From NCBI GenBank assembly GCA_964596735.1, contig CAZQVF010000004.1, positions 229-64,228 on the forward strand: a DNA stretch of 64,000 nt. Reading direction: 5' to 3'. This document shows, piece by piece, positions 1-45,651 of this stretch (positions within the stretch are counted from its first letter, which is position 1; every line of letters begins with the position of its first letter). This stretch comes from an uncultured Gammaproteobacteria bacterium. Its GTDB lineage: Bacteria > Patescibacteriota > Patescibacteriia > UBA2591 > UBA6264. Below the pieces are notes generated by a model. The model made no database searches. It worked only from the letters and a program-made list of their open reading frames with translations, and was not told the origin of the DNA. The position numbers and the translations under genes are program-made.

Positions 1-1
1 T

Positions 2-607
2 AAAAAACCATCATTTTTAAGAAGTTTTAAAAAATTAATTTATCTTTTAGTCACCTATCCTGCTTTTACTAAACCTTTTTACAACTTTGTTTCTCTTTTT
101 GATTACGTAGAAGAGAAAAAAATATTGAAAAAATTTACCCAATATTACCACGAAGAAAAAATTGATTTACCAAAAGACGCTTTTGAAATGATTTCTCCTT
201 TAGAGGCTCGGGTCGGTCTGGTTCAGCTTAAAAAATATTCTGAAATTAAAGAAAAAAGAAAAAAAATCGCTCAATTCTATAATGACAACTTAAAAGATAT
301 TCCTGAATTAACTCTGCCGCCCATTGTCAAGGGAGCTACTTATTCTCATTATGTCCCCCGGGTACAAAATCGAGAAAAAATAGTAAAAGAAATGAAAAAA
401 CAAGGGATTCAATTAGGAACATTGATTGAATATTCTATTCCCTACATGAAAGCCTATCAAAAATACAAAGATGAAGAGTTTAAAAATTCATTAAACTTTT
501 CACAAACAGTTATTAATTTGCCAATTTACCCTAGCTTAAGAAAGAAAAATTTAAGACAAATAACAAATAAAATTAAACAAATATATGAAAATCAAACAAA
601 CAATTAA
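2..607 (+). CDS. DegT/DnrJ/EryC1/StrS-family sugar aminotransferase, C-terminal part (5' end lies outside the window)
   Basis: The ORF track begins at a TTG at 125, but the same frame is open with no stop back to position 2, so the gene enters from upstream. The C-terminal region (MISPLEARVGLVQLKKYSEIKEKRKKIAQFY ... NLPIYPSL) matches the C-terminal domain of PLP-dependent DegT-type aminotransferases. Confidence 0.55.
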   Translation, partial: KKPSFLRSFKKLIYLLVTYPAFTKPFYNFVSLFDYVEEKKILKKFTQYYHEEKIDLPKDAFEMISPLEARVGLVQLKKYSEIKEKRKKIAQFYNDNLKDIPELTLPPIVKGATYSHYVPRVQNREKIVKEMKKQGIQLGTLIEYSIPYMKAYQKYKDEEFKNSLNFSQTVINLPIYPSLRKKNLRQITNKIKQIYENQTNN

Positions 608-1697
608 AAAGATTGTTAAACGAAATAAATACCTCAAAGCTCTAGCTTTGACCTTAATTAGAACCTATACTCTTTTTCTAAAATATGAATCAAAGGGTTT
701 GTCTTTAAAAACCAAGCTTCATATTATGAAAAAATATTTTATCCAAGAAATTAAAGGATTGCCTAGGATTATTGCTTTTGAACCAATTTCTACCTGTCCA
801 TTAAATTGTGAATTTTGCATGTTAAGAGATCTAAGGACGTTTGAAAAAAGGAGAAAAGTTAGAATGTCATTTAAAGAATTTAAAAGAATTATTGATGACA
901 CTGCTTCTTTTTGCACAAATATTGAATTCAGCGGAGGAGAACCCATCCTTAATAATGATATCTTTAAAATGTTAAAATATTGCCATGAAAAAAATATTAC
1001 TACTGTCTTGGCCACTAATGCTCAATTATTAAATAAAGAAAAAATAAAACAACTTTTACAAAGTCCTCCTAATCATGTCCTTCTAGCCCTTGAATCACCT
1101 GATAGAAAAACATATGAAAAAATAAGACATTTAGGAAACTTTGAAAGACTAAATAAAAATATTCATGAATTAATCTCACAAAAAAAGAAAACCGGGCAAT
1201 TTTATCCTCTAATTACCCTGCAAATGGTTTTGACAAAGGTAAATCAATATCAGGAAAAATATTATCATCAGATTGTCTCAGATTTAGGAGCAGACTTCTC
1301 TTCAGTTAAAGCTTTTGGTATTTGGCCCGAGGGCAGTCCTGAGTATTTTGAAAAAATGGAAAAAGAATATATAGTTGATAAAAAAGACAACCCAATCTCA
1401 AGGCATTATCTTGATAACAAAGGCAAGGTGGTTTACAAAAAATTAAAAAAGGGTGATTGTCCATTAACACAAACTGCCTATATAGGAAGTGGTGGAGAAG
1501 TTTATCCGTGTTGGTATATTCTCGCCCAAAAATTTTCGCCAGGTAACGCTGTTGATAATAATTTTATCGATATTTGGAACAGTAAAACTTATAAAAATTT
1601 TAGAAAAAAAATGGTTGAAGGTGCTGCTTATCCTGGTTTATGTGAAAAATGTATCGGACTAGAATCAAGGGCCGTTGTTAAAAGGGTAAAAAAATGA
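585..1697 (+). CDS. Radical SAM protein with C-terminal SPASM-like Cys cluster
   Basis: CxxxCxxC motif (STCPLNCEFCML) followed by FSGGEP. The C-terminus is Cys-rich (CPLTQ...YPCWY...GLCEKC), typical of SPASM/twitch auxiliary Fe-S domains. The start may instead be the internal Met (MKKYF...) at about 726. Confidence 0.7.
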   Translation: MKIKQTIKKIVKRNKYLKALALTLIRTYTLFLKYESKGLSLKTKLHIMKKYFIQEIKGLPRIIAFEPISTCPLNCEFCMLRDLRTFEKRRKVRMSFKEFKRIIDDTASFCTNIEFSGGEPILNNDIFKMLKYCHEKNITTVLATNAQLLNKEKIKQLLQSPPNHVLLALESPDRKTYEKIRHLGNFERLNKNIHELISQKKKTGQFYPLITLQMVLTKVNQYQEKYYHQIVSDLGADFSSVKAFGIWPEGSPEYFEKMEKEYIVDKKDNPISRHYLDNKGKVVYKKLKKGDCPLTQTAYIGSGGEVYPCWYILAQKFSPGNAVDNNFIDIWNSKTYKNFRKKMVEGAAYPGLCEKCIGLESRAVVKRVKK

Positions 1698-1701
1698 ACA
1701 T

Positions 1702-2541
1702 ATGAAAATTTTAATTATTTGTGGTAATGACATTTTTTCTGGAATTCTCGCATATAAATTGATTAGTCAAAATCATAAATCAATTGTTGGCATACTTTTA
1801 ACTAAAAAAATGATACACAAAAAGTCTCCTTTTGGTCTTTTTAAAAAAGTTGTAAAAACCTCGGGGTTAACCTATGCTTTTTATTTGGCGAATGAATTGA
1901 TTATTTACAAAATAATTGCATTTCTTCATTATATTTTAAATTTTAACAAAAATGATAATGCGTCTTTATGTTCCATTTCTAGGCTAGCCAAAAAATATAA
2001 TATAGAAATTTCTCAAACTAAGGACATAATGGCTGAACAGTCTTTGAAAAAAATTAAAACATTAAAACCAGATTTAATAATTAGTATTAGATTGGGACAA
2101 ATTATTAAAAAAAGATTATTACAGATCCCAGCCCTAGGGGCAATTAACTTTCACGCTTCTCTACTTCCTAAATATGCTGGTCTCGGATCAGTGTTTCAGG
2201 CTGTGTTTTATAATGAAAAATATAACGGAGTTACTGTTCATTTTATGAATGAAAAAATTGATCAGGGGAAAATCATAGTTCAAGAAAAAATAAAAATTAT
2301 TCCAAACGAATCAATTAGCCGTTTGTATCTAAGGTGTCATATTAAAGGAGCTGATTTAATAAATAAAGCCGTGAAATTAGTTGAATCAGACAACAAAGGG
2401 TTTATCCCTGACCTCAAAGAAAAAAGTTATTTTTCTTGGCCAGAAAAACAAAAAATTAAAAAATTTAAAAAATGTGGTGGAAAATTTTTAAAAATTTCAG
2501 ATATCTTTTATTTATTGTTTAATTTCAAATATGAAAAATAA
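1702..2541 (+). CDS. Formyltransferase-family protein (Fmt/ArnA/PurN-like), likely a sugar N-formyltransferase
   Basis: Formyl_trans_N catalytic motif NFHASLLPKYAGLGSVFQAVFYNEKYNGVTVHFMNEKIDQGKIIVQEK (HxSLLP...G, D...G). It sits within a glycan locus. Confidence 0.65.
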   Translation: MKILIICGNDIFSGILAYKLISQNHKSIVGILLTKKMIHKKSPFGLFKKVVKTSGLTYAFYLANELIIYKIIAFLHYILNFNKNDNASLCSISRLAKKYNIEISQTKDIMAEQSLKKIKTLKPDLIISIRLGQIIKKRLLQIPALGAINFHASLLPKYAGLGSVFQAVFYNEKYNGVTVHFMNEKIDQGKIIVQEKIKIIPNESISRLYLRCHIKGADLINKAVKLVESDNKGFIPDLKEKSYFSWPEKQKIKKFKKCGGKFLKISDIFYLLFNFKYEK

Positions 2542-3187
2542 TACTAATATTGAAGAAGAAGCGTTTATTAAAACAGACCAATATATTTATAAAAATCCAA
2601 TTACTCGATTTATTACAAATCTGGGGCACAAGACTTGTACAAAGTTGAGAAAAAATAAAAATTGCCCTGTTTTAGATTTGGGGTGTGGCGCTGGAGATCA
2701 TTTTCCTTATATTCAGAACCAACAAATCATTGGACTTGATATTTCACAAAAATTATTATCTCAAGCTCAAAAAAAATATCCCCATGCTCAACTGATTAAT
2801 GGAAACATTTTTAATCCTCCATTCAAAAAAGAATCTATAAAATCAATTATTTCTTTTGCTGTTTTGGAACATCTTTCCCCCTTGGAAAAGGCCTTGGAAC
2901 AAATTAACCATGTTTTGTCAAAAGACGGCGAATTTATTTTTGCTATTCCTACAGAGGGATTTTTGTATCGCTTGGGACGCAAACTCACAACCCAAAGATA
3001 TATTGAAAAAACAACCGGGATTGATTATGAAAAACTGTTAAAAAAAGAACACGTTAATCAGTGTGTTGATGTTTTAAAATGTGTGAAAAGGTATTTTTAT
3101 TTAAAACAATTAAGAGGTGTTCCTTTTTTTATTCCTAATATAAATTTAAATTTTGTAATAGTAGGACGATGTCTAAAAAAGAAATAA
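2531..3187 (+). CDS. Class I SAM-dependent methyltransferase
   Basis: Motif I VLDLGCGAGDH; post-I IIGLDIS; acidic LEH motif. Confidence 0.6.
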   Translation: MKNNTNIEEEAFIKTDQYIYKNPITRFITNLGHKTCTKLRKNKNCPVLDLGCGAGDHFPYIQNQQIIGLDISQKLLSQAQKKYPHAQLINGNIFNPPFKKESIKSIISFAVLEHLSPLEKALEQINHVLSKDGEFIFAIPTEGFLYRLGRKLTTQRYIEKTTGIDYEKLLKKEHVNQCVDVLKCVKRYFYLKQLRGVPFFIPNINLNFVIVGRCLKKK

Positions 3188-4005
3188 AGAAAGACGGAGA
3201 AAAATTTTGGGATTCAAATCCTTGTGGCGGATCCTGGATAACATTTAAAAAAAGGCTGGATTGGTATATAAAAACAGAGCCATACATTTTAGAATATATT
3301 AATAATGATCTGCTAAAAAATAAAAGGGTACTAGATGATGGATGCGGACAGGGATTAATTCTGTCCTTAATTGCTCAAAAATGTCGAAAGGTTGTTGGGG
3401 TAGATATTAGCAAAGAGTCCTTAATTAGAGCAAAACAAGGGATTAAAGAGCTGGGCTTACAAAATGTAGAGCTAATACAGGGTGATGCTGAAAATTTGCC
3501 TCTAAAAGACGAGACTTTTGATGTTGTTTATTCTATTGGAGTTCTTCATCACACTCCAGATACTCAAAAAGGAATTGACGAAATTTATCGCGTATTGAAA
3601 AATGACGGACAAGCAATTGTTATGCTTTATCATAAATTTAACCCAAAATGGCTAGCCGTTATTATTTTACGGAAAATATCAAAAATCACTGACATAATAA
3701 ACAGACAAAATTATTTTATAAGCAATAAAATAAAAAAATCAGCCAATAAAAAAAATGAACAGGGAACTGCTTTATTAGAACTTTTTGGTTGCCCGGTTTT
3801 AAAAATGTATTCCTCCCGCCAAGCTAAAAAATTCTTTAATAAGTTCAATTATATCAAAATCAAATATCATCAATCAGGATTTGAAAGATTATCAGATTTT
3901 CTGCCCAAATCCTGTCAGAGGTTGTTCCGCCCTCTGTTGAAATTAATTGATAAAATTACAAAAAATATCTTTGGTTTTTATATGGTTATTGAAGCACATA
4001 AATAA
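3169..4005 (+). CDS. Class I SAM-dependent methyltransferase (type 11-like)
   Basis: VLDDGCGQG (motif I), VVGVDIS, FDVVYSIGVLHH, KNDGQAIV. Confidence 0.65.
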   Translation: MSKKEIKKDGEKFWDSNPCGGSWITFKKRLDWYIKTEPYILEYINNDLLKNKRVLDDGCGQGLILSLIAQKCRKVVGVDISKESLIRAKQGIKELGLQNVELIQGDAENLPLKDETFDVVYSIGVLHHTPDTQKGIDEIYRVLKNDGQAIVMLYHKFNPKWLAVIILRKISKITDIINRQNYFISNKIKKSANKKNEQGTALLELFGCPVLKMYSSRQAKKFFNKFNYIKIKYHQSGFERLSDFLPKSCQRLFRPLLKLIDKITKNIFGFYMVIEAHK

Positions 4006-5818
4006 AATTAAAATGTTTAAACAGAGAATAAAAAGATATTTTAACAATTTGTCATGGCAGGAAAAAATAAAAACTATTTTTTCTCAACCTTTTCTTATCT
4101 TAGCGTTGCCAAAAACTTATTACCGATTGTATAAAAATATCTTGAGACCAAAGAATAAACAACTTGAATTTACTACTGGATTTTCAAAAACTACCGCGCT
4201 TATTTTGACTTGGTATTTACGGGTGAATGAATGTATTGAAAAATACGGTAGAAATGGATATGTATATGAAGACGGACTTGGGTTTTCTTTAAAAGAAAGA
4301 TTTTGGCTTAATCCCCTTGCTTTAAAAATTTACGGAAAATTAAAAATTCGCAATTTTATAATCATAACCACCGTTTTATTTATACTAAGTATTGCTATTA
4401 TTGCCTATTTTCAGTCTACCTCCTTGATATTTGCTATTATATTGACAATTTCAATTATCGGAAGCTCTTTATTTCTAATTTCATTTTTCAGATTCTCAAA
4501 GCCTGAAATATTAAGCTGGGCATTATTTCCATTTGCTTTTTATGCCTTCTTTACTGAGTCATATATTATTGCTGGTATAATTGCCATTTTAATCTCTTTT
4601 TTAAATTTTACAGTTACTTTATTAATTTTAGAAACTATTATACTTTATTCTTTTTTGTCAAAAAATTTATTTAATGGTTTTTTAATTTCTATTATTCCAA
4701 TATTAAAACTCTTGAACGACTTGTTGCCCCTTTTAAAAAGTTCACTAGTTAATAAATTATTTGAAGTCTTGGGCGGAAGAAAGGCAAAATCTAGAAAAGA
4801 TAAACTTTTAAAACTGCGATTAGAAGATGTATATTTGGAATTCTTTTATATTATTTTTATCTCTATTTTTATAATCCAGAAAGCGCCATTAGTCTATACT
4901 GTTCTTTTAATTAATCCTTTAATATTGTTTATTATTAATCAAAAAATATTCAGATATGGAGATAATAATACATTTTTTCGATTTTTCTTTACCATCGCAA
5001 CGATATGCATAATTTTACATCCAACTGTTTTATCTTTTATTTTTTACCTACTATTTATTTATCTATCCCCTCTTTCCTTGCTTGATGTTTCAGAAAAAAA
5101 TCTCTCTAATTTTCCTTATTTAAAACCGTATTCTTTGGAAAAAATAAACAAATTGGTTGAAAAATTTTTTAATCAAATCCCAAACCAATCTAGAATTGCC
5201 TTTGAACGAAATGACACCGAAAAGTCAATGTCCGGATTTAGAACAATTCTTTATTACCTAGAATATATACTCTTTAAAAGAGGAATTGAATTTCTGCCAA
5301 TGGAATGGTTACGCTTTACTCAGCTAGACTATTTTATGCAAGAATATATCAAAATCAACAATCAGAGTAATAAAAAAACAATTGAAGAAAAATTTCATGA
5401 ATTGGGCGTTCAATATATTATAGCTCACTCCCCTTCTTTTATAGAAAATCTTAAAAACTGGGGCTATAAAGAGATTAATACTCTAAATTATAAAGATATT
5501 AAAAAATACTTTTGGGGCCTCAAGGGTCTCCCTGAAAAAAATCTAGTTTTATTTTTATTACCCTTTGATGTTTTTTTAACTCATCCTCATTCAATTTTAA
5601 TAAGAAAGCCTAATCAAATGAAATTTGAAGCTCAGGCAAAAACAGAATACATTGTTAAATATACTTATCACCCAGATTGGCAAGCGTCTCAAAACGGTAA
5701 AAAAATACCCGTCTATGAATCTAAAGAAAAACTTTCATATCTTGCCTTAAAAACAGAAGACAAAGGAATGGTAGAGCTACAATTCAAAACCAATAAAGAC
5801 CGTACACCTTATGTATGA
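3947..5818 (+). CDS. Large polytopic membrane protein, copy A, with a soluble C-terminal domain resembling the C-termini of GT-C/YfhO-type membrane glycosyltransferases
   Basis: About 10 predicted hydrophobic helices. The soluble C-terminal ~230 aa end in YHPDWQASQNGKKIPVYESKEKLSYLALKTEDKGMVELQF, the Y-x-P-x-W-x-A-x-x-NGK-x-IPVY...L motif typical of GT-C/YfhO family C-termini. The probable true start is ATG 4013 (MFKQRIKRYF), which aligns with the start of paralog 7293..9092. Confidence 0.5.
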   Translation: MIKLQKISLVFIWLLKHINKIKMFKQRIKRYFNNLSWQEKIKTIFSQPFLILALPKTYYRLYKNILRPKNKQLEFTTGFSKTTALILTWYLRVNECIEKYGRNGYVYEDGLGFSLKERFWLNPLALKIYGKLKIRNFIIITTVLFILSIAIIAYFQSTSLIFAIILTISIIGSSLFLISFFRFSKPEILSWALFPFAFYAFFTESYIIAGIIAILISFLNFTVTLLILETIILYSFLSKNLFNGFLISIIPILKLLNDLLPLLKSSLVNKLFEVLGGRKAKSRKDKLLKLRLEDVYLEFFYIIFISIFIIQKAPLVYTVLLINPLILFIINQKIFRYGDNNTFFRFFFTIATICIILHPTVLSFIFYLLFIYLSPLSLLDVSEKNLSNFPYLKPYSLEKINKLVEKFFNQIPNQSRIAFERNDTEKSMSGFRTILYYLEYILFKRGIEFLPMEWLRFTQLDYFMQEYIKINNQSNKKTIEEKFHELGVQYIIAHSPSFIENLKNWGYKEINTLNYKDIKKYFWGLKGLPEKNLVLFLLPFDVFLTHPHSILIRKPNQMKFEAQAKTEYIVKYTYHPDWQASQNGKKIPVYESKEKLSYLALKTEDKGMVELQFKTNKDRTPYV

Positions 5819-7280
5819 AAAATTTAAACAATTAGGTAAAGACTCTACTTTATACGGATTAGGTAGCCTAGTTGGCAAAATAGTAGGTTTCTTGTTAATT
5901 CCTATTTATACCAGAATTTTTTCTCCATCTGATTATGGGATCATTGAAATGATTGGGGTTACCTGCTCAATTATCGGCATTATTCTTTCACTTGGATTAG
6001 ATTCTGCAATGTTTATGTGTTATTATCGTACCGATGATCAAAAAGAACGTCGTCTAATAACTTCTGTTAATTTCTTTTACCAGCTCTCCGCTATTATTGT
6101 TACCTGTATTTTAATAATTTTATTCAGTTCACAAATTTCGTTATTTCTTTTTAAAAATATTGTTTATTCAAAATATATTACTGTTGCTTTCTTGGGAATT
6201 CCTTTTGTTACTCTGATATCATTTTGTACCAACATTCTTAGACTAAATTTTCAGCCAATAAAATTTATCTATATCACTCTGGGAAACTTAATTATTAGTA
6301 CTTGCCTGAGTATATATTTCGTAGTGATCGCTCGTATCGGTATTATTGGTATTTACTATGCAATTTTAATCTCCGCAGTTATTCTTTCTATAATCTCTCT
6401 TTATTTAATACGTCAATATATTAGCCCTGTTTTTTCCTTTAAAAAGTTTAAAGAATTATTAAAAATAGGAATTCCTTTAGCTCCAGTCGCTGCTTTTATT
6501 TGGATTATGGACTTTTCAGATAGATACTTTTTGACCCATTTTACTAACCTTCATGAAATTGGTCTATATTCCATCGCTAATAAATTAGCCTTGGCCTTAG
6601 CCTTAGTCATTTTGGCTTTTCGTACTGCTAACGCTCCATTTCAATTTTCTGTTCAGAAAGACAAAGAAGCAAAAAAAATCTACGCTAAAACTTTAACCTA
6701 CTATATTATTGTTACCTTTTTTGTTGCTACTGGTCTTTCTATTTTTGCTAAAGAAGCTCTTATCATTCTTGCTCCTCCAATCTATCTTGCCGCCTACAGA
6801 GTAACCGGCCTACTTGCTTTTAGTATTGTTATCTATGGTCTTTATCATTTAATAGGAATTGGTCTAATTTTAAGTGATAAAAGAAAATATTTTACTATTT
6901 CCATAGGGATTGCCTGTATTTTAAACCTCTTCTTTAATAATGCCTTTATCCCTCTTTGGGGAATTATGGGCGCAGCTCTAGCCACACTTTTGTCTTATTC
7001 CATTGGTGCCATTCTTACTTATTATTATTCTCAAAAATATTATTTTATAGGATTTGAAATAAAAAAAATACTAAAGGTTACCTTGGTAACCCTTATTCTA
7101 ACTTTTGTTGGAACATTAATTATTTTCCCTTCATTACTTTTGAGTATAGTATTTAAAATTCTTCTCATGTTCTGTCTTTCAACTTTTCTCTATTCTCTTT
7201 TAGAACCAAAGGAAATACAAAAAATTAAATCAATTTTAAAAAACATTTTATATAAATATCTCCCTAATAATATGCGTTAA
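5811..7280 (+). CDS. Wzx-like polysaccharide/oligosaccharide flippase (MOP superfamily), copy A
   Basis: 489 aa with about 12-14 TM helices. The N-terminus MYEKFKQL...GSLVGKIVGFLLIPIYTRIFSPSDYGI is typical of Polysacc_synt (PF01943) flippases. Confidence 0.65.
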   Translation: MYEKFKQLGKDSTLYGLGSLVGKIVGFLLIPIYTRIFSPSDYGIIEMIGVTCSIIGIILSLGLDSAMFMCYYRTDDQKERRLITSVNFFYQLSAIIVTCILIILFSSQISLFLFKNIVYSKYITVAFLGIPFVTLISFCTNILRLNFQPIKFIYITLGNLIISTCLSIYFVVIARIGIIGIYYAILISAVILSIISLYLIRQYISPVFSFKKFKELLKIGIPLAPVAAFIWIMDFSDRYFLTHFTNLHEIGLYSIANKLALALALVILAFRTANAPFQFSVQKDKEAKKIYAKTLTYYIIVTFFVATGLSIFAKEALIILAPPIYLAAYRVTGLLAFSIVIYGLYHLIGIGLILSDKRKYFTISIGIACILNLFFNNAFIPLWGIMGAALATLLSYSIGAILTYYYSQKYYFIGFEIKKILKVTLVTLILTFVGTLIIFPSLLLSIVFKILLMFCLSTFLYSLLEPKEIQKIKSILKNILYKYLPNNMR

Positions 7281-7292
7281 TAACTAATTTCT

Positions 7293-9092
7293 GTGAGGTT
7301 AATAAAAAAATTCAAGAAATTTTATAACATGTTCTCTTTAGAGAATAAATTAGCCACTTTTTTTTCTATTCCTTTTTTAATTTTTATTCTTCCCAGAACT
7401 TATTGGAGGCTTTTTAAAAATGTGACTATACCAAGTAAAGAAGATCATTATATAACTGGTTTTTCCTCCCATATGGCCCTTATTCTTACTTGGTATCTCA
7501 GAATCGCTGATTGCGTTAAAAAATACGGCAGACACGGATATATTTATGAAGACGGCCTGGGTTCTTCTTTAAAAGAACGATTTTGGTCGAATTCATTTTC
7601 CTTAAAAATATATAATACTCTAAAGATTAAAAAATTCACTATTTTAACTGTTGTAATTCTCCTTTTTAATATTATTTTAATTGGTTTTCTACAAAATTCA
7701 CCCTGGCCTTTAATAATCGTCCTTATTTTGCTGATTATTGGTAGTCCTCTCTTTTTAATTTCTTTTTTCAGACTATCAAAACCAGAAATTTTAAGCTGGG
7801 CTTTTTTCCCTTTAGTTATATATTTCTTTTTAAACGGCTATTATTTAGTTTCAGGATTATTTTTGATCTTTATTGCTTTTTTAAATTTTACGACCACCCT
7901 TTTAACTATTGAAACTATTTTACTATGCTCTTTGGTTTCTAATTCTTTCATTAACGGAATTCTTATTTCAATCATCCCGCTAGTAATACTGGCAATCGAC
8001 TTTATTCCCTTTCTAAGGGGCTCTATTATAAATGGTGTGTTAGAAGCACTAGGAGGAAGAAGGGCAAAATCCCGCACTGACGAGTTTCTAAGAATCCGGC
8101 TTAATGACTTGTATTTGATTTTCTTTTATCTTATCTTTATTGTTACCTTTGTTATTAAAGATGCCTCTTTTATTCACGTGGTTCTTTTGATAAATCCTTT
8201 AATTTTATTTATCATTGACCGGAATATCTTTAGATTTGCTGATAATAACACGTTCTTTAGGTTCTTTTTTGCCCTGAGCACGGTTTTTGTTTTAATGAAT
8301 CCACACTTTTTAGTATTTCTTGCTTATATTATCTTTTTATACATGTCCCCTTTAAGCATGCTTGAAGTTTTTGAAAGTATTCCCAAAGAATATCCTCATC
8401 TTAAACCCCATTCTATTAAAAAATCAAAAGAATTTTTGGAAAAAACCTTCTCTCCGATTTCCAATCAATCAAGGATTGTATTTGAAATTAAGGACACTGA
8501 AAAATCTTTATCAGGATTTTCCACCCTTCTTTATTATTTTGAATATATTTTTATTAAAAGAGGTATTGAACTTTTGCCAATGGAATGGTTAAGAATGAAC
8601 CAAACTGACTATTTAATTAATGAATACGTAAAGATAAATAAAGAAAGCGATCAAGAAACAATTGAAGAAAAATTAAAAGAGCTTGGAGCACAATATTTAA
8701 TTGCTCATTCTAGTGAATTTATTAATAAATTGAAACAATGGGGATATCAAAATGTTATTATTATTCGTTGGCAAGACATTAAAAAAACTTTATGGGATTT
8801 CAAGGGAGTACTGATCCCGGAAAAAGATTTATTTATTTTTAAAGTACCTTTTTCCACCAGTTTTATTGAGCCAGAAACCAATTTAACACGTAAACCCAAT
8901 CAAATGGAATTTAACGCCCAAGCCAACAAAGAATATATTATCAAATATAATTACCATCCTTCTTGGCAAGTTTGGCAGAACAATAAAGAAATTCCTGTTT
9001 ACAAAGCAAAAGGAAATCTTTCCTATCTGGCATTATCTCCTAAAGAAAGTGGTCAGATGGTCCTAAAATTTAATACTCATTGGTATAAATAA
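7293..9092 (+). CDS. Large polytopic membrane protein, copy B (paralog of 3947..5818)
   Basis: Collinear similarity to copy A along its whole length (ILTWYLR, LKERFW, FFRLSKPEILSWA, LEALGGRRAKSR, KPNQMEFNAQA, YHPSWQVWQNNKEIPVY...LSYLAL). Confidence 0.5.
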   Translation: MRLIKKFKKFYNMFSLENKLATFFSIPFLIFILPRTYWRLFKNVTIPSKEDHYITGFSSHMALILTWYLRIADCVKKYGRHGYIYEDGLGSSLKERFWSNSFSLKIYNTLKIKKFTILTVVILLFNIILIGFLQNSPWPLIIVLILLIIGSPLFLISFFRLSKPEILSWAFFPLVIYFFLNGYYLVSGLFLIFIAFLNFTTTLLTIETILLCSLVSNSFINGILISIIPLVILAIDFIPFLRGSIINGVLEALGGRRAKSRTDEFLRIRLNDLYLIFFYLIFIVTFVIKDASFIHVVLLINPLILFIIDRNIFRFADNNTFFRFFFALSTVFVLMNPHFLVFLAYIIFLYMSPLSMLEVFESIPKEYPHLKPHSIKKSKEFLEKTFSPISNQSRIVFEIKDTEKSLSGFSTLLYYFEYIFIKRGIELLPMEWLRMNQTDYLINEYVKINKESDQETIEEKLKELGAQYLIAHSSEFINKLKQWGYQNVIIIRWQDIKKTLWDFKGVLIPEKDLFIFKVPFSTSFIEPETNLTRKPNQMEFNAQANKEYIIKYNYHPSWQVWQNNKEIPVYKAKGNLSYLALSPKESGQMVLKFNTHWYK

Positions 9093-10564
9093 TGTATCAA
9101 AAATTTAAACAATTAATTCAACACTCTTTTATTTACATGGTTGGGACAATCTTGACTGGAATAGTTAGCTTTGTTCTCATTCCTATTTATACTCGCGTAT
9201 TCTCTACTACTGACTATGGCATTTTAGATGTTGTTTTAATTACAGCTAAGGTGGTTATTAGCTTAAGTGTGTTGGGCCTGTATGCTGGCCTAAGCATGTT
9301 TTATTTTCACGAAAAGAACGAAGAAGAAAAAAAGACCATGGTTTCTTCAAATTTTATCTTTCTTTTATCTGTTACTGTTATTCTTTGCCTGATTACTATT
9401 TTCTTTAGCAAGGAGATTGCTAACATTTTTCTTAAAAATAGTGCATATGGTATTTATTTAATTCTGGCCGTTGCCACTGTACCATTTACAACAATCATTT
9501 CCTTTTGTTCAACTCTTTATCGACTTTCTTTTCAGCCAGTCAAATATTTCTATATTATTTTAGGAAACTTACTTTTTGGAACAGTTTTAAGTATTTATTT
9601 GGTGGTATTTAAAGAAATGGGGCTCTTTGGTGTTTTATATGGATCTCTTATCTCAAGTATAATCTTTTCTTTCTGGGGTCTTTATTTAACTAAAAATCAA
9701 TTTAATTGGAACTTCTCTTTACAAAAAATTAAAGATTTACTTAAATTTGGTTTACCTTTAGCCCCAACCGGATTAATGGTTTGGGTAATTGATTCGTCTA
9801 ATCGTTATTTCTTATCTTATTTTAGAAACGTCAGTGATGTTGGGCTTTATTCTGTCGGATTTAAATTTGCGGCAATTCTTCTTCTTGTCACTAGTGCTTT
9901 CCGTTTAGCTAATGCACCTTTTCAATATTCTATTTCTAGAGAAAACCGGGTCAAAGAAATCTATGCCAAAACCCTAACCTATTATATGTTTGCTACTCTT
10001 TTTCTTGCAGTAGGTATTTCTATTTTTAGCAAAGAATTAGTTAGTCTCTTTACCCCTTTAGAATATTTAAACGGCTATCAAGTTATTGCTCCTTTGGCGT
10101 TTAGTTTTTTGGTTTTTGGAATTTACCAGATCGCCGGTATTGGTTTAATGCTCTGCAAAAAAACATATTATGTTACCTATAGCCTTGGGATTGCTTCTTT
10201 GGCTAGCGTTTTATTAAATTTCTTTTTAATCCCCTATTTTGGCATTGTCGGCGCTGCTTTTGCTAATCTTTTGGCTTATTTAATTGGACTTAGTTTAATT
10301 CATTTTTGGAATCAAAAATACTACCACATAGACTTTGAAATAAAAAGAATTGTTAAAATTTTACTTTTTTCTGTTGGTTTAATTTTGTTTGGCTTATTTT
10401 TAATACCTCCTTCAACCCTTTTTGGTCTCTTAATAAAATTTGTTTTAATTCTTTTCTTCGCCTTGGGTGTATATTTCAGCTTAGAATTATCAGAAAAAGA
10501 CAGATTAAAACTATTAATCAATGACATATCACATAAATTATCTTTTAAAAAATCAAATGACTAA
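9092..10564 (+). CDS. Wzx-like flippase (MOP superfamily), copy B (paralog of 5811..7280)
   Basis: MYQKFKQL...GIVSFVLIPIYTRVFSTTDYGI. 490 aa, multi-TM, same architecture as copy A. Confidence 0.65.
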   Translation: MYQKFKQLIQHSFIYMVGTILTGIVSFVLIPIYTRVFSTTDYGILDVVLITAKVVISLSVLGLYAGLSMFYFHEKNEEEKKTMVSSNFIFLLSVTVILCLITIFFSKEIANIFLKNSAYGIYLILAVATVPFTTIISFCSTLYRLSFQPVKYFYIILGNLLFGTVLSIYLVVFKEMGLFGVLYGSLISSIIFSFWGLYLTKNQFNWNFSLQKIKDLLKFGLPLAPTGLMVWVIDSSNRYFLSYFRNVSDVGLYSVGFKFAAILLLVTSAFRLANAPFQYSISRENRVKEIYAKTLTYYMFATLFLAVGISIFSKELVSLFTPLEYLNGYQVIAPLAFSFLVFGIYQIAGIGLMLCKKTYYVTYSLGIASLASVLLNFFLIPYFGIVGAAFANLLAYLIGLSLIHFWNQKYYHIDFEIKRIVKILLFSVGLILFGLFLIPPSTLFGLLIKFVLILFFALGVYFSLELSEKDRLKLLINDISHKLSFKKSND

Positions 10565-11723
10565 ATCGAACAAAAAAATTTGCATGACTGTTTTAAACGA
10601 CTTTACGCATGATTCGCGTGTCTTACGTGAAGCCAAGGCCCTGCAGCAAGCAGGATACCAGGTTTTTGTTTTTGCTCTTTTTGAACCAGGTTTAAAAGAA
10701 AAAGAAACTGTTGAAAATATTCAAGCAGTTCGCATACCCTTAAAAACGCGCAAAATATTAGAAAAAACAAACATTCGTTTTATCAGGTTTATCGAATTTA
10801 TGATAAGAGTCTTAGCTCACATTAAAAAAATCAATCCCCTTGTCTGCCATTGCCATGATTTTAATACTCTACCCATTGGTTATTTAGCTAAAAAACTTTT
10901 TAAAACTAAATTAATTTATGATTCTCATGAACTAGAAAGTCATAAAGCCCCAGGAGAAAAAAAAGATCCTCACTGGTTTCTCTGGCTTCATCGTCGGGCT
11001 GAACACTTTTTTATGAGAAAAGCTGATGCTATCATTACTGTTGGTGATTGTATTGCTGATTATTTGGTTAAACAAGACCATATTAAACGTCCCATTGTTG
11101 TCCGTAATATTGAAGAAGAGGCTAAGGAAATTGACTATGAAGTGATGAGAAAAAAACATTTTAATCTTTCTCAGGATTATAAAATAGTTATTTACCAGGG
11201 GGGACTACAAAAATGGCGCGGAATAGAAAGCCTGATTCAGGCTTTAAAATATTTGGACAAAAAAATTATTCTAGCATTAGTTGGTGACGGCCCTTTAAAA
11301 AAGAACTTTGAAACAATGGTTGAAAAACTTAGCTTAAGTGATAGAGTAATATTTACCGGCTGGGTTAAACCAGAAGAATTACTTTCTTATACTTTACAGG
11401 CTGATTTAGGCACTGTCTCTTCTGAAAACCTTTGTTTAAGCTATTACTACACCTTGCCCAGTAAATTTTTTCAATACATTAGAGCTGGTATTCCTTTGGG
11501 AATAAGTGATTTTCCAGATATGAAAAAAATAGTTAATAAATATGATATTGGCGTATGTTTTAACCCTAGCGACCCTAAAGACGTAGCCAAAGCCATTAAA
11601 AAAGGGTTTAAGGAGGGTTATTATAAAAAATTAAAGGAAAATGTCATTAAAATACAAGAATTATTCACTTGGGATAAAGAAAAACAAAAACTTATTGAAT
11701 TATATAATCAACTAAACAAATAA
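10521..11723 (+). CDS. Glycosyltransferase family 4 (GT-B fold)
   Basis: N-terminal GT4-like domain (ICMTVLNDFTHDSRVLREAKAL) and C-terminal Glycos_transf_1 region (IVIYQGGLQKWRGIESLIQA ... VGDGP ... FTGWV). The likely real start is ATG 10557 (MTKSNKK), overlapping the flippase stop. Confidence 0.65.
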   Translation: MTYHINYLLKNQMTKSNKKICMTVLNDFTHDSRVLREAKALQQAGYQVFVFALFEPGLKEKETVENIQAVRIPLKTRKILEKTNIRFIRFIEFMIRVLAHIKKINPLVCHCHDFNTLPIGYLAKKLFKTKLIYDSHELESHKAPGEKKDPHWFLWLHRRAEHFFMRKADAIITVGDCIADYLVKQDHIKRPIVVRNIEEEAKEIDYEVMRKKHFNLSQDYKIVIYQGGLQKWRGIESLIQALKYLDKKIILALVGDGPLKKNFETMVEKLSLSDRVIFTGWVKPEELLSYTLQADLGTVSSENLCLSYYYTLPSKFFQYIRAGIPLGISDFPDMKKIVNKYDIGVCFNPSDPKDVAKAIKKGFKEGYYKKLKENVIKIQELFTWDKEKQKLIELYNQLNK

Positions 11724-11727
11724 ACCT

Positions 11728-12369
11728 ATGTTAAATGATTTAAAAAAAATATTAGTTTTAGCTCCTCACACTGATGATGGAGAATTTGGTTGCGGAGGAG
11801 CCATTGCCAAATTTATTGAAGAAAAGAAAAAAGTTTTTTATGTTGCTTTTTCTTCAGCGGAAAAATCAGTACCAAAAGGAATGTCTAAGAATGTTCTTAA
11901 AAAGGAACTAAAAAAAGCAGCTAAGGTTTTGGGTATTCCAGAAAAAAATCTGATTTTACTTAATTATCCAGTACGGGATTTTCCAGCTCACCGCCAAGAA
12001 ATCTTGGAAGATATGCTTAAGATAGGGGAAAAAATCAAACCAGATTTAGTGCTTCTCCCCTGTTCTCACGACACCCATCAAGATCACCAAGTAATTGCCC
12101 AAGAAGGGTTTAGGGCTTTTAAAACAACTTCTATGTTGGGATATGAAATTTCTTGGAATAATTTAAGCTTTAATACTGAAGCCTTTATTTTGCTTAAACC
12201 AAAACACTTACAAAAAAAACTTCGGGCTATAAGATGTTATAAATCTCAATCAAAAAGAGCCTATGCCTCAGAGGAGTTTATTAAAAGTCTGGCTACCACT
12301 CGCGGAAGACAAATCGGTGCAGATTCTTATGCCGAAGCATTTGAAATAACTAGATGGCTGATCAAATAA
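11728..12369 (+). CDS. PIG-L/LmbE-family N-acetylglucosaminyl deacetylase
   Basis: VLAPHTDDGEFGCGG (the HPDDE-like zinc-binding motif) and HDTHQDHQ. Confidence 0.7.
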   Translation: MLNDLKKILVLAPHTDDGEFGCGGAIAKFIEEKKKVFYVAFSSAEKSVPKGMSKNVLKKELKKAAKVLGIPEKNLILLNYPVRDFPAHRQEILEDMLKIGEKIKPDLVLLPCSHDTHQDHQVIAQEGFRAFKTTSMLGYEISWNNLSFNTEAFILLKPKHLQKKLRAIRCYKSQSKRAYASEEFIKSLATTRGRQIGADSYAEAFEITRWLIK

Positions 12370-13043
12370 AAATTGGAATTCACCAACCAAATTATTTGCC
12401 CTGGTTAGGTTATTTTTACAAAATCGCTCAGGTTGATATTTTTATTCTTTTAGACAATGTCCAATATGAAAAAAATAGCTATACCAACCGATGTCAAATC
12501 AAAACCCCTCAAGCCCCATTTTGGCTAACCTTACCGATTAAAAGAAAATTTCCTCAGATGATTAATAAGGCTGAAATAACTAATTATAAACAAGAAATTC
12601 AACGACATCTTAAAACCATTAGTCAAAATTATCAAAAAGCAAAATATTTTAATGACTTATACCCGGAATTAGAAAAAATAATGAAAAAAGATTATTCTTA
12701 TTTATCAGATTTGAATATTGCTTTAATTAAATTTTTGGTAAATAAGTTAAGAATCAAAACAAAAATAAAAACTGCTTCAGATTTTCAAGTTTCTGGGGCA
12801 AGTACTGAACGATTAATTAATCTTTGCAAAAATTTTAAAGGATCTATATATCTTTCTGGAAAAGGCGGGGCTAATTATCAAGACGAAGAAAAATTTAAAA
12901 AAGCAGGGATTAATTTAAAATATACTAATTTTCAACATCCCAATTACAACCAATTGTGGAAAGAATTTGTTCCTGGAATGTCAATTATTGATTTATTATT
13001 TAATTGCGGACCAGAAAGTTTAAAAATATTATTAAAAAAATAA
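12354..13043 (+). CDS. WbqC-like family protein
   Basis: IGIHQPNYLPWLGYFYKIAQVDIFILLDNVQY matches the WbqC-like (PF08889) N-terminus found in O-antigen loci. Confidence 0.6.
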   Translation: MADQIKIGIHQPNYLPWLGYFYKIAQVDIFILLDNVQYEKNSYTNRCQIKTPQAPFWLTLPIKRKFPQMINKAEITNYKQEIQRHLKTISQNYQKAKYFNDLYPELEKIMKKDYSYLSDLNIALIKFLVNKLRIKTKIKTASDFQVSGASTERLINLCKNFKGSIYLSGKGGANYQDEEKFKKAGINLKYTNFQHPNYNQLWKEFVPGMSIIDLLFNCGPESLKILLKK

Positions 13044-13047
13044 CTTT

Positions 13048-14346
13048 ATGCCAGCCGTGCCACTACCATTATATATTGCTTATGCATTAATCGGGATTAT
13101 TGTTTTGTTTATTATTGCTTTGAAACCAAAGCTATTTTGGCCGTTTTTAATCATAGCCACTGTTGCCTTTGGCGGATTAATGATTCAAGGACACGGTTTA
13201 GTAGAAGAATACTTAGTTGATCTTATTATTTTAGGCGCTTTACTTGCCCTTTCAATTGGTGCCATTCATTTAAAAAAACAAAAAGAGAATAAATGGGAAA
13301 CCCTACATCGAGCTGTTTTTATTATTTTTATTATGTACATGCTGGTTCAAAGCGTGCGCGGACTCTTAATTTTACATGATCCTCGTATTATTCGCTGGGT
13401 ATTTTTCTATGGTTTTCTTGGTCTGTTGACCTTTATTATTACCAAAAAAGGCTTCCCAACACCAAACGCTAGAAAAACCTCAATTATTATTTCTATTTCT
13501 ACATTAATTTATTTAAGTGCCTATCTGTTAACTGGGGTTATTTATGAAGCAATAACTGGACTATCTAAATGGGATCTGCAGGGTTATGTTTGGTCCGGGG
13601 CTGCCGCAGCTGTTTTCCCCTTAGTTTTGGCTATGCCCGCCGCTCTTTTTCTAATTAGAAGTAAAATTCGTAATGATAAAATTATTGCTTGGCTGGTTAT
13701 TATAATGGGTATGGTCATCACCCACTATTACTCTGCCCGAAGCGCCGCGGTAATGATGTTTGTTTTTCTAATTGTCGCGTTGTTCACTGTAAAATTTCGT
13801 AAAGTGCTTGTTCTAATAATTCTTTTTGCAGTTTTAACTATATTTTTAGGCACTGGTGATACAATTACTCAATATACGCAAAATATTGCCAAAAGTGCAG
13901 CATTGAAATCTAAATCTGAAGCAGGTCGACTCGATTTTGTTCATGCAGCCATGAACGCTATTGAAAAAAATGTAGGCACGTTCCTTTTTGGTTATGGAAT
14001 GTACACTAATCGTTATGTAATTCCCCCATATTTATATGATATTGGTTATTTTGGTGGCGGACCCATGCCAAAAATCGCCCGCACCTCGGGTTTATCAGCC
14101 CAAATCATTGATATTGGCATAATCGGTCTTTTGTTGTTTTATTTAAATATATTTTTTGTTGCCCGAAAAACTCTTTTTCTAAAACATAACCCTAATCGTT
14201 TTAGCATTATTTTAGCCTTAGGTATAATCTGTTTTTGGCCACTTGTCTCAAATATTCATGATAATGTTTTACTTTACTTATTAATAATGCCAGCTGGTTT
14301 ATTTATCCAATTAAGTAAAACAAGTCTTCAAGAATTAACTAAATAA
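13048..14346 (+). CDS. Polytopic membrane protein, O-antigen polymerase/ligase (Wzy)-like
   Basis: 432 aa with more than 10 hydrophobic helices and a larger loop in the C-terminal third (TQYTQNIAKSAALKSKSEAGRLDFVHAAMNAIEKN), like Wzy_C proteins. Its position in a glycan locus supports the call, but it is weak. Confidence 0.4.
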   Translation: MPAVPLPLYIAYALIGIIVLFIIALKPKLFWPFLIIATVAFGGLMIQGHGLVEEYLVDLIILGALLALSIGAIHLKKQKENKWETLHRAVFIIFIMYMLVQSVRGLLILHDPRIIRWVFFYGFLGLLTFIITKKGFPTPNARKTSIIISISTLIYLSAYLLTGVIYEAITGLSKWDLQGYVWSGAAAAVFPLVLAMPAALFLIRSKIRNDKIIAWLVIIMGMVITHYYSARSAAVMMFVFLIVALFTVKFRKVLVLIILFAVLTIFLGTGDTITQYTQNIAKSAALKSKSEAGRLDFVHAAMNAIEKNVGTFLFGYGMYTNRYVIPPYLYDIGYFGGGPMPKIARTSGLSAQIIDIGIIGLLLFYLNIFFVARKTLFLKHNPNRFSIILALGIICFWPLVSNIHDNVLLYLLIMPAGLFIQLSKTSLQELTK

Positions 14347-14347
14347 T

Positions 14348-15433: not shown

Positions 15434-15435
15434 AT

Positions 15436-17797: not shown

Positions 17798-17801
17798 AAT
17801 T

Positions 17802-18794: not shown

Positions 18795-18804
18795 TAAAAG
18801 GTGT

Positions 18805-20171: not shown

Positions 20172-20173
20172 TT

Positions 20174-22151: not shown

Positions 22152-22153
22152 AT

Positions 22154-23269: not shown

Positions 23270-23284
23270 TAAACGGTAATTCCT

Positions 23285-26322: not shown

Positions 26323-26327
26323 CCACT

Positions 26328-35149: not shown

Positions 35150-35160
35150 AAAATTTAATA

Positions 35161-42422: not shown

Positions 42423-42440
42423 TAAAATATTATTTACATA

Positions 42441-44067: not shown

Positions 44068-44076
44068 AAACCTATT

Positions 44077-45642: not shown

Positions 45643-45651
45643 AAATTTTAA

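Follow-up and report, generated by a model that had tools for sequence, protein, structure and literature searches.

The first part of the window, i.e., of the whole 64,000-nucleotide stretch of DNA analyzed, is occupied by a co-directional polysaccharide locus (positions 1..27272, forward strand), as defined by Pfam and NCBIfam scans and counts of transmembrane (TM) helices; the upstream continuation of this locus is found in L095. In order, it encodes a DegT protein, a radical SAM/SPASM protein, a formyltransferase, and two methyltransferases, followed by a four-gene module, termed here BIG1-Wzx1-BIG2-Wzx2, in which two large membrane proteins alternate with two flippases. Downstream of Wzx2 are found a GT4, a PIG-L deacetylase, WbqC, a Wzy_C-like protein (13048-14346), another GT4, a methyltransferase-like protein, a weak Glyco_trans_1_4 match (16505-17797), a GT2 with C-terminal TM helices (17802-18794), a methyltransferase, a PglC-like Bac_transf protein (19578-20171), E1 alpha and beta, two further DegT proteins, a PglF-like dehydratase, and Wzz (26328-27272). 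The initial annotation had likened the module to GtrB-type decoration, but we found no convincing GtrB/ArnC-type lipid-phosphate-sugar synthase in the locus; the GT2 at 17802-18794 shares only generic GT2 similarity with Escherichia coli K-12 ArnC (24% over 123 amino acids).

All four genes of the module lie on the forward strand. BIG1 (4013..5818) encodes 601 amino acids. Its mechanical ORF, and with it the gene as initially annotated, begins at TTG 3947, which would cause an overlap of 59 nucleotides with the upstream methyltransferase; since similarity to the paralogue and to homologues starts at M23, the ATG at position 4013 is most likely the start. Wzx1 (5811..7280; 489 amino acids) overlaps the BIG1 stop by 8 nucleotides, BIG2 (7293..9092; 599 amino acids) has a GTG start, and for Wzx2 (9092..10564; 490 amino acids), the ATG and the preceding stop codon of BIG2 have one base in common. 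That each large protein is paired with a MOP flippase was confirmed, since both proteins of ~490 amino acids are Wzx/MOP flippases according to their Pfam matches (Polysacc_synt_3, 68.6 and 73.5 bits with a cut-off of 23; 6.8e-19 for Wzx1 and 2.2e-20 for Wzx2; Wzx1 also matches Polysacc_synt at 7.6e-16).

The two gene pairs are paralogous pair for pair, as originally proposed. The four ORFs are present as described, the peptides quoted as examples of visible protein identity were found in the translations, and BLASTP aligned BIG1 and BIG2 with 320 identical residues out of 593 (54%, E = 0) and Wzx1 and Wzx2 with 209 out of 482 (43%, E = 1e-141). In-register direct DNA repeats define a module period of 3,280-3,281 nucleotides. 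One of these repeats (5802-5855 versus 9083-9136, 76%) covers the junction between the stop of the large gene and the start of Wzx, and because the homology includes this junction, the gene pair was copied as a unit. The DNA identity of about 80% in places that had been noted holds for windows of 60 to 93 nucleotides only (best 60-nucleotide window, 83%/77%; one 93-nucleotide repeat, 75%), whereas overall codon-aligned identity amounts to 64% for the large gene and 57% for Wzx, with 45-47% at third positions. To judge from this divergence, the duplication is therefore ancient, not recent. BIG1 and BIG2 are each 53-56% identical to orthologues in other metagenomes, compared to 54% to each other, and the closest to Wzx2 is not Wzx1 (43%) but the Wzx of locus L001 (46%).

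Scans of the ~600-amino-acid proteins against Pfam, NCBIfam, and PDB sequences returned no match. They belong to a family of at least 516 cluster representatives at E <= 1e-3, of which 180 are retrieved at E <= 1e-30; the family is unnamed, and its members are mostly metagenomic and occur in bacteria and archaea. Membership in YfhO, PMT_2, STT3, or other described GT-C sequence families was rejected, as none of these was matched by sequence. The predicted layout consists of helix 1, a long structured first loop with the motif G-R-x-G-Y-x-Y-E-D-G-L-G, 9-10 further helices with a K-P-E turn, a kink at (S/N)-x-T, and an almost invariant R-x-x-D loop, and a C-terminal alpha/beta plus beta-sandwich domain. 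A number of observations can be made on these elements. (i) The first-loop motif, located after helix 1 in BIG2 (7527..7583; G79-R-x-G82-Y-x-Y-E86-D87-G-L-G90...R96-F97) and likewise present in BIG1 (4247-4303), is a candidate GT-C-type acidic motif. Its glycines G79, G82, and G90 are kept in 145-151 of 155 family members, but the acidic pair E86/D87 in only about half of them. (ii) The most conserved acidic residue of the family is D317 (D in 139 and S in 16 of the 155 members), which together with R314 (108 of 155) forms part of the R314-x-x-D317-x-x-T320 loop (FRFADNNT in BIG2, 8232..8252). Of the duplicated DNA, the stretch that includes this loop (8181-8273 versus 4901-4993, 75%) is conserved best. 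(iii) A WWDxG-type motif is absent from all 155 members. (iv) The C-terminal soluble domain, delimited in BIG2 by model secondary structure and conservation (residues 361-599, 8373..9089; equivalent segment in BIG1, 5093-5815), comprises an alpha/beta part with R394, a position at which 150 of 155 members have R or K, and a beta-sandwich (residues 513-593) bearing the YHPxWxAxQNGK...LSYLAL motif. The claim that this motif typifies YfhO-type C termini is only weakly supported: 2 of 74 C-terminal segments matched the last ~40 positions of PF09586 (YfhO) below threshold (E about 0.01), but none of the family members passed a Pfam threshold, and full-length scans were empty.

The structural model of BIG2 (pLDDT 93, pTM 0.92) supports the view that the large proteins have a GT-C-like fold, as had been predicted. 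Its 19 best Foldseek matches in the PDB were all GT-C enzymes, namely, STT3, PglB, DPY19, ALG9, ArnT, and AftD. STT3 (E = 2e-4), PglB, and DPY19 ranked first, within 2e-4 to 8e-3, followed by ALG9, ArnT, and AftD (E = 0.05-0.1). TM-scores were moderate (0.40-0.45) and rmsd values large, reaching 9-12 Å in the near full-length alignments to STT3 and AftD. In the modelled C-terminal domain, the alpha/beta part is Rossmann-like, and partial fold matches were obtained to AftD and to GH beta-sandwich domains. These matches correspond to the reference set (STT3, PglB, AftD, ArnT, and AglB) by which GT-C side-chain transferases that lack a Pfam family have been recognized (PMC8035078).

We then inspected the genomic context of the family in 11 loci, all of which are glycan-assembly loci. 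In 7 of them, the large gene is the immediate same-strand neighbor of a Wzx gene, and stop and start codons overlap in most of these cases; in another (L009), it directly follows a Wzm/Wzt exporter. The organisms with the cassette include an archaeon and a probable CPR bacterium. The trees of the large gene and Wzx mirror each other, and the correlation between the identity matrices of the large proteins and their adjacent Wzx proteins (r = 0.87, Mantel p about 0.002, n = 8) indicates, at the sequence level, that both co-diversify. The data thus support the description of the pair as a GT-C-like protein plus dedicated flippase. Since most loci (L001, L011, L013, L097, L098, and L099) show no flippase other than the adjacent Wzx, this Wzx may flip the main repeat unit, not a dedicated side-chain donor. 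The window, L002, L009, and L097 each also encode a candidate polymerase distinct from the large protein, either Wzy_C-like or another polytopic protein, so that the large protein would provide an additional function and is not the sole polymerase candidate.

On balance, we lean toward the interpretation that the module represents two anciently diverged copies of a translationally coupled, co-inherited unit of a flippase and a GT-C-fold transferase acting outside the cytoplasm. Wzx would bring a sugar or oligosaccharide linked to polyprenyl phosphate across the membrane to its outer face. For the large protein, we infer a catalytic role in which it would take the lipid-linked glycan delivered by its own flippase as donor and transfer it, with an active site outside the cytoplasm, onto the glycan product of the surrounding locus, in the manner of GacK/GacL, the MATE-flippase/GT136 systems, and Gtr/YfhO systems; the beta-sandwich would help to bind this acceptor polymer.

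Precedents exist for a MOP-family flippase next to a GT-C protein with a carbohydrate-binding domain, namely, the multi-component transmembrane glycosylation systems GacI/J-GacK(Wzx-type)-GacL(GT-C) of Streptococcus pyogenes and ORF15-ORF14(MATE)-ORF12(GT136, GT-C with CBM) of Citrobacter (PMC8035078, PMC11127046). As in the module, the gene for a MOP-superfamily flippase adjoins that for a polytopic GT-C-fold protein in a polysaccharide locus, Pfam has no family for the GT-C partner, which is recognized only by structural similarity to AftD, ArnT, STT3, AglB, and PglB, an extra beta-sandwich domain is present, and loci with multiple GT-Cs are known. In contrast to these systems, the BIG family shows no detectable sequence similarity to their GT-Cs, lacks a convincing synthase partner in its locus, is translationally coupled to and co-diversifies with Wzx over the whole family, is paired in many loci with what seems to be the only flippase, and has a predicted topology that conflicts with an extracytoplasmic C-terminal domain. 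YfhO (PF09586), which acts in teichoic acid glycosylation with CsbB and GtcA, also has a polytopic N-terminal part followed by a C-terminal domain ending in a Y-x-P-x-W-x-A-x-x-(N/D)-G-K ... beta-sandwich motif, but the BIG proteins fall below the Pfam threshold, are smaller (about 600 amino acids, 10-11 helices), and have a Wzx-type, not a GtrA-type, partner. The cassette further resembles the Arn pathway (ArnB aminotransferase, ArnA formyltransferase, ArnC, ArnD deformylase, ArnE/F flippase, and the GT-C ArnT) in combining a DegT aminotransferase, an N-formyl-/N-acetyltransferase, a polysaccharide deacetylase, a flippase, and a GT-C-fold protein. In comparisons with the E. coli K-12 proteins, clear homology was limited to the formyltransferase domain (32% over 133 amino acids, a family-level similarity); the deacetylase matches ArnD with E = 0.017, and ArnT, though among the fold matches of BIG2, is aligned to the family profile by hhalign with a probability of only 0.2. 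Finally, O-antigen and capsule loci with Wzx/Wzy pairs share the flippase gene adjoining a polytopic membrane protein, the initiating phosphoglycosyltransferase, and Wzz. The BIG proteins differ in their predicted GT-C(A)-type fold with a 240-amino-acid soluble domain and in the separate occurrence of Wzy_C-like candidates; hhalign of the close-family profile (alignment A1) with the window's own Wzy_C-like protein revealed no similarity.

As for the side of the membrane faced by the C-terminal domain, the family charge bias points to the cytoplasm and the GT-C analogy to the outside. Across the aligned family, loop 243-269 is strongly basic, and so are the inserts that follow the last helix; those at 216-219 and 289-292 are acidic or neutral. 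An indel is never seen at N198, where the helix of the model is broken by a single residue only. According to the positive-inside rule, which the control protein E. coli ArnT obeys, loop charges and N198 continuity predict 10 helices with N-in and C-in, which would make both the C-terminal domain and the R-x-x-D loop cytoplasmic, an arrangement unlike any GT-C known to us. The large protein could then be a GT-C-shaped enzyme or adaptor, instead of an outer-face glycosyltransferase, that modifies or hands over a lipid-linked intermediate on the inner face just before the coupled Wzx flips it. We consider this unlikely. In its favor, the positive-inside signal is self-consistent and family-wide over five loops, the single-residue break makes 184-215 one kinked helix and the helix count even, and the most conserved polar residues (D317, R314, and R394) lie on the basic-loop side; the Rossmann-like part would suit a nucleotide-type cytoplasmic ligand, half of the family dispenses with the first-loop acidic pair, and tight translational coupling fits a hand-over role. 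Yet all 19 best fold matches are outer-face enzymes, and the near full-length alignments to STT3 and AftD are hard to square with a domain on the opposite side, an indirect argument as the aligned ranges are unreported. In addition, the beta-sandwich is similar to CBM-type domains, which are extracytoplasmic, and weakly to the C terminus of YfhO, and an odd helix count would gather all conserved motifs on one face, a more economical arrangement for a single active site.

Equally improbable in our assessment is an en bloc transferase role of the large protein, i.e., as an OST-like ligase or a non-canonical polymerase and not as a single-sugar side-chain transferase, in which it would join a whole Und-PP-linked unit that its Wzx has flipped, or Wzm/Wzt has exported, to protein, lipid, cell wall, or a growing chain. 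The ranking of the fold matches, with STT3, PglB, and DPY19 ahead of ALG9, ArnT, and AftD, is consistent with this possibility. For the GT66 proteins STT3, PglB, and AglB, the best fold matches of BIG2 (E = 2e-4 to 8e-3, probability 0.97-1.0, TM-score 0.29-0.44), the resemblance includes a long first loop and a flexible loop preceding four helices and a C-terminal domain of mixed alpha/beta type, mirroring the EL5-TM10-13-C-domain layout of PglB. Furthermore, a sole visible Wzx in six loci should carry the main glycan, the L009 gene directly follows an exporter, and LPS-type ligation does not apply in an archaeon and a probable CPR bacterium. The BIG proteins differ from the GT66 proteins in having 10-11 instead of 13 helices, a strongly basic flexible loop, and no sequence similarity to PDB chains. 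Against an en bloc role, none of the 155 members has a WWDxG motif. Wzy_C-family or other polytopic polymerase or ligase candidates exist separately in four loci including the window, a polymerase is unneeded in an ABC transporter locus, and the predicted C-in topology conflicts with this alternative as it does with the interpretation that we favor.

The occurrence of tandem paralogues within one operon-like cluster might also reflect a redundant or decaying second pair without separate function, but this is very improbable, since all four ORFs are intact, all close-family invariant positions are kept in BIG1 and BIG2, the same two-pair arrangement was found in contigs of four separate metagenome samples, locus L001 also retains two diverged large-gene copies, and synonymous sites are saturated while the proteins are still 54% and 43% identical, indicating that both copies have been long maintained. 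In the favored interpretation of flippase-transferase units acting outside the cytoplasm, the two pairs would give one locus two different specificities for donor or linkage, and the original proposal that two distinct lipid-linked glycans may be involved is reasonable. The large proteins thus point to a new enzyme family, as defined by sequence, and not to a new kind of system.

The first 27 kb of the window are occupied by a polysaccharide locus, the genes of which run in a single direction. It contains two successive units on the plus strand, each consisting of a gene for a large membrane protein of about 600 amino acids (BIG1, 4013..5818, and BIG2, 7293..9092) followed by a gene for a protein of about 490 amino acids (Wzx1, 5811..7280, and Wzx2, 9092..10564). 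For BIG1, the ATG at 4013 is the most likely start as judged from the sequence; an extension to the TTG at 3947 (3947..5818) overlaps the upstream methyltransferase gene and is not conserved. The two ~490-aa proteins matched the Pfam families Polysacc_synt_3 (68.6 and 73.5 bits; cut-off, 23) and Polysacc_synt (58.8 and 66.8 bits; cut-off, 28.2), and their hydropathy peaks, determined with a crude method, extend across the entire 489 and 490 amino acids, in line with 12 to 14 helices and with the absence of a large soluble domain. With scores well over the cut-offs, both are classified as Wzx/MOP flippases, which agrees with the initial annotation, in which each large protein was paired with a MOP flippase.

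The two units had also been described as paralogous pair for pair, and the protein comparisons bear this out: BIG1 and BIG2 share 54% identity over 593 aligned residues, and Wzx1 and Wzx2 share 43% over 482. DNA repeats are in register with a period of 3,280 to 3,281 nt, and one of them (5802-5855 versus 9083-9136, 76% identity) contains the junction between the BIG stop and the Wzx start, which overlap in both units. Since the in-register repeat crosses this junction, the pair was copied as one unit. The DNA identity of about 80% noted earlier holds for windows of 60 to 93 nt only, whereas the overall codon-aligned identity is 64% for BIG and 57% for Wzx. Third codon positions are 45 to 47% identical between the copies, and by sequence divergence the duplication is old. 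BIG2 resembles orthologues in other metagenomes (53 to 56% identity) no less than it resembles BIG1, and a Wzx from another locus (46%) is nearer to Wzx2 than Wzx1 is.

The large proteins matched no family in Pfam and NCBIfam. We searched 1.84 billion cluster representatives exhaustively with an HMM and retrieved 516 relatives at E <= 1e-3, of which 180 reached E <= 1e-30. They fall into three size classes of about 520 aa (no terminal beta-sandwich), about 600 aa (including BIG1 and BIG2), and about 700 aa (extended at the N terminus). All 30 clusters that were looked up were either unnamed or named "hypothetical" or "membrane protein." The clusters are metagenomic singletons almost throughout, with a host named only in the cases of Campylobacter concisus and a Methanoperedenaceae archaeon; a profile of the close family found no relative among 185,579 species-representative genomes. 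A scan of 51 diverse family members against Pfam gave no match to any family, and PMT, PMT_2, and PF04932 (Wzy/O-antigen ligase) were matched neither by these members nor by BIG1 and BIG2. Profiles of 12 and 51 sequences yielded only noise (E >= 0.1) against the PDB sequences, with no homology to an OST chain, and hhalign probabilities were 0.2 both for the close-family profile against the Wzy_C-like protein of the window and for the 51-sequence profile against E. coli ArnT. A profile of the soluble C-terminal domain of BIG2 (C-domain, residues 361-599) retrieved a single fragment and no informative relatives from a set of 5.8 billion proteins, apparent stand-alone C-domain proteins proved to be gene fragments, and a tblastn search of plasmids with the C-terminal motif returned nothing relevant. 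A repeat search with the 51-sequence alignment recovered the 11 proteins of the initial search and no others.

GT-C glycosyltransferases catalyze extracytoplasmic steps that fix the final structure of cell surface glycans, and their recognition by sequence is notoriously hard. A structural model of BIG2 from 12 close homologues was of mediocre quality (pLDDT, 76), yet GT-C enzymes made up its eleven highest-ranked PDB matches and the majority of its best ones. The model from 51 diverse homologues reached a pLDDT of 93 and a pTM of 0.92, and its 19 best Foldseek matches in the PDB were all GT-C glycosyltransferases, namely, STT3 from yeast and humans (best E = 2e-4; probability, 1.0; TM-score, 0.40 to 0.44), AftD (TM-score, 0.45), PglB, DPY19, ALG9, ArnT, AftA, and ALG6; matches ranked below these were short and partial. 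In the model, a basic N terminus is followed by helix 16-45, a confidently folded first loop of about 55 residues with short helices (46-100; pLDDT, 94 to 97), and another 9 or 10 helices (101-133, 138-160, 166-180, 184-197/199-215, 219-242, 270-288, 293-311, 318-335, and 339-356), with a basic loop of low confidence at 243-269. An alpha/beta domain (370-500) and a beta-sandwich (513-593) complete the protein, the latter with partial fold matches to AftD and to accessory domains of glycoside hydrolases. The model thus has the 7 to 13 helices and the long structured loop after helix 1 that characterize the GT-C fold, and its membrane domain is similar in three dimensions to solved GT-C enzymes. 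The GT-C classification proposed earlier therefore largely stands at the level of the fold but does not extend to membership in any described GT-C family. In Gram-positive bacteria, GT-C side-chain transferases that lack a Pfam family have been recognized via the same structural reference set (PMC8035078).

Conservation was counted over 155 family members (residue numbers of BIG2). The most conserved positions are G79, G82, and G90 in the first loop (145 to 151 members), S151 in helix 138-160 (146), W169 in helix 166-180 (150), and, within the C-domain, R394 (R or K in 150), P372 at its start (130), and P429 (119). The loop R314-x-x-D317 contains R314 in 108 members and, at position 317, D in 139 and S in 16. 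The closest look-alike of the GT-C "modified DxD" is the first-loop pair E86-D87, which BIG1 and BIG2 share with the ~600-aa class. However, only about half of the 137 members of the set that bear the anchor motif have an acid at these positions, and the motif of the 520-aa class reads G-R-x-G-x-S-P-x-x-G-x-G. The family-wide acid is D317, in a loop other than the first. A WWDxG motif occurs in none of the 155 members (regular expression W[WYF]D[YFWHN]G, plus WWD anywhere). The C-terminal motif that had been taken as typical of YfhO-type enzymes is real and conserved inside the ~600-aa class, but the proposed kinship finds little backing: PF09586 (YfhO) did not match BIG1, BIG2, or the 51 members in full-length scans, and only 2 of 74 isolated C termini scored, at 14 bits (cut-off, 28.5; E of about 0.01) at positions 785-823 of the 835-position profile.

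We then examined 11 independent loci with family members, from the window and from other metagenomes (L001 and further L numbers), and all 11 are glycan assembly loci. (i) In seven, a Wzx gene directly adjoins the large gene on the same strand, usually with an overlap of 4 to 37 nt (the window, twice, L001, L011/L012, L013, L097, L098, and L099), which substantiates the flippase partnership. (ii) In two (L007 and L008), an unrelated Wzx gene lies on the opposite strand, at most two genes away. (iii) In L009, an ABC transporter locus, the large gene is directly 3' of Wzm/Wzt. (iv) In L002, Wzx is at a distance of 10 kb. The identity matrices of the large proteins and their adjoining Wzx proteins are correlated (r = 0.87; Mantel p of about 0.002; n = 8), and both comparisons show the same three subclades, indicating that the two genes have stayed together in inheritance down to about 20% identity. 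The copy numbers of large gene and flippase vary separately; L001 (8177-11818), an independent second instance, contains two diverged tandem large genes (P0010 and P0006, 44% identical) followed by a single Wzx.

Around the large gene, bacteria and an archaeon share a cassette of GT2 (~265 aa), AsnB-like, DUF7033 or polysaccharide deacetylase, Ulvan_lyase_N-like (heparinase-like), and DegT genes, in some cases radical SAM and formyl- or acetyltransferase genes, methyltransferases, BIG/Wzx, and GT4 (L001, L002, L007, L008, L011, L013, L095, and L098). Its occurrence in uncultured bacteria, Campylobacter concisus-like contigs, and a Methanoperedenaceae archaeon implies interdomain transfer of the whole module; a literature search on the AsnB/heparinase-like/DegT cassette found nothing useful. 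In the window, a radical SAM/SPASM gene (585-1697, +) is flanked by genes for a sugar aminotransferase and a formyltransferase, the same position as in L002 and L007. WbpB/D/E/I-like genes for a diacetamido-uronic acid are found upstream of the window. A GT2 of 330 aa with two or three C-terminal transmembrane helices (17802-18794, +) has generic GT2 matches only (NCBIfam, ArnC) and may be a lipid-phosphate-sugar synthase; among the other loci examined, a counterpart was seen only in L002 (11742-12731), directly 3' of the large membrane gene. No orthology to the E. coli arn operon was found, and an Arn-like pathway is retained as an analogy of logic.

With moderate confidence, we interpret these data as a co-inherited unit of a flippase and a GT-C-fold transferase, present in the window in two long-diverged copies, that uses a flippase-delivered glycan at the outer face. 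Wzx would deliver a lipid-linked glycan to the outer face, where the GT-C-fold protein, a putative transferase, would by analogy use the glycan supplied by its own flippase; the donor may be polyprenyl-phosphate linked, as far as the genetic context, linkage to Wzx or Wzm/Wzt, goes. The same flippase plus GT-C logic is found in GacK/GacL (PMC8035078) and in the MATE-flippase/GT136 systems (PMC11127046). The large proteins form a new sequence family in a kind of system that is already known. Alternatively, the large protein may be an OST-like en bloc ligase or a polymerase, which we consider unlikely. STT3 is among its fold matches. Separate Wzy_C-like or other polytopic candidates exist in the window (13048-14346), L002, L009, and L097, so that the large protein adds a function and is not the only candidate for the polymerase; together with the ABC transporter dependence of one locus, this led us to down-weight its being the Wzy of the locus.

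As to topology, we lean toward an outward-facing C-domain. In a different reading, which taken as a whole is unlikely, the GT-C scaffold is used in an inverted manner: the R-x-x-D loop and the Rossmann-like/beta-sandwich C-domain would be cytoplasmic, and the enzyme would modify or present a lipid-linked glycan at the inner face and hand it straight to the translationally coupled Wzx, the two forming a dedicated "finish-and-flip" module conserved in CPR-like bacteria and Campylobacter through archaea. The positive-inside signal is coherent over the family alignment, with a basic N terminus, loop 243-269 (mean of 6.6 K+R), and inserts past the last helix, and with inserts of acidic or neutral character at 216-219 and at 289-292; the rule also holds for the control protein, E. 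coli ArnT. No family member has an indel at N198, and the helix break there is of one residue only in the model, so that 184-215 would be a single kinked helix. Together, the charge pattern and the kinked helix point to 10 helices with both termini inside and thus to a cytoplasmic R-x-x-D loop and C-domain. However, the soluble domain is, to our knowledge, extracytoplasmic in every known GT-C enzyme, and an odd helix count would bring the first loop, the K-P-E turn, S/N-x-T, R-x-x-D, and R394 to one face. Moreover, the Foldseek alignments with AftD and STT3 are near full length at an rmsd of 9 to 12 Å only (aligned ranges are not reported), which would be hard to reach with 40% of the residues across the membrane and argues indirectly for the outside, and the beta-sandwich resembles extracytoplasmic CBM-type domains; the weak YfhO matches of the C terminus point the same way. 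Mean-field DCA of the 155 sequences for covariation of the C-domain with outer versus inner loops gave gap and alignment artefacts only. A cytoplasmic topology, if true, would run counter to the rule by which the action of GT-C enzymes is confined to the outer face. The least tenable alternative is that the second copy is redundant, which is highly improbable.

Contigs of JGI metagenomes are exact matches to the window. Its RecA had its best matches among 185,579 species genomes in Candidatus Paceibacter (69%), an unclassified bacterium (65%), Doudnabacteria (65%), and Saccharibacteria (64%), slightly above those in Proteobacteria (60 to 63%), and the GC content is about 30 to 35%; tentatively, the host is therefore probably Patescibacteria-like, with no close sequenced relative. 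The Wzx/Wzy/Wzz-type locus of more than 27 kb is found in a seemingly CPR-like host. RpoB (1,066 aa) and RpoC (1,264 aa) are compact (RecA, RpoB, and RpoC entry at 27343-28353 and 31355-38361, both -).

Several other genes deserve mention. Within the locus, genes for TPP-dependent E1 alpha and beta subunits (20174-22151, +) adjoin a PglC-like initiating transferase and two DegT genes, suggesting a two-carbon side group on an amino sugar; counterparts elsewhere are split transketolase-like genes, and the one in L007 (15810-17689) appears to be disrupted by an ORF bearing a NUMOD3 (homing endonuclease) motif. For two further genes of the locus (15436-17797, +; 361 and 430 aa), the matches to methyltransferases or GT1 are only marginal, and the metagenome annotation lists no Pfam entry. 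Four tandem paralogous genes of about 490 to 520 aa (39964-41523, 42517-44067, 44077-45642, and 45652-47127, all -) matched in Pfam only a C-terminal PEP-utilising mobile domain, and a separate gene for a PPDK_N (ATP-binding) protein of 259 aa (41643-42422) lies among them; the region 39964-47127 is an unusual split, amplified PPDK/PEP-synthase-like arrangement. AlaRS (49092-50870, -; 592 aa) stops at the second additional domain, and on its strand it is followed by a separate gene for an aminoacyl-tRNA editing domain (48506-49066, -; 186 aa) and preceded by a gene for an LPG_synthase_TM-family membrane protein (50873-51898, -). A TrwB/HerA-like ATPase of 539 aa (51981-53600, -) has a C-terminal treble-clef zinc finger and is surrounded by housekeeping genes.

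Taken together, a fold can be assigned to a nearly metagenome-only family that is absent from Pfam and NCBIfam and that has a conserved genetic partner, the co-diversifying Wzx, and a conserved sugar modification cassette common to bacteria and an archaeon. New CAZy families have been founded on recently characterized GT-C enzymes, e.g., GT136, and if our interpretation is confirmed, the family would represent one more GT family. It would also give access to glycan assembly in little-studied lineages, which are probably Patescibacteria, and provide a clean natural pair of diverged modules for the co-evolution of flippase and transferase specificity.
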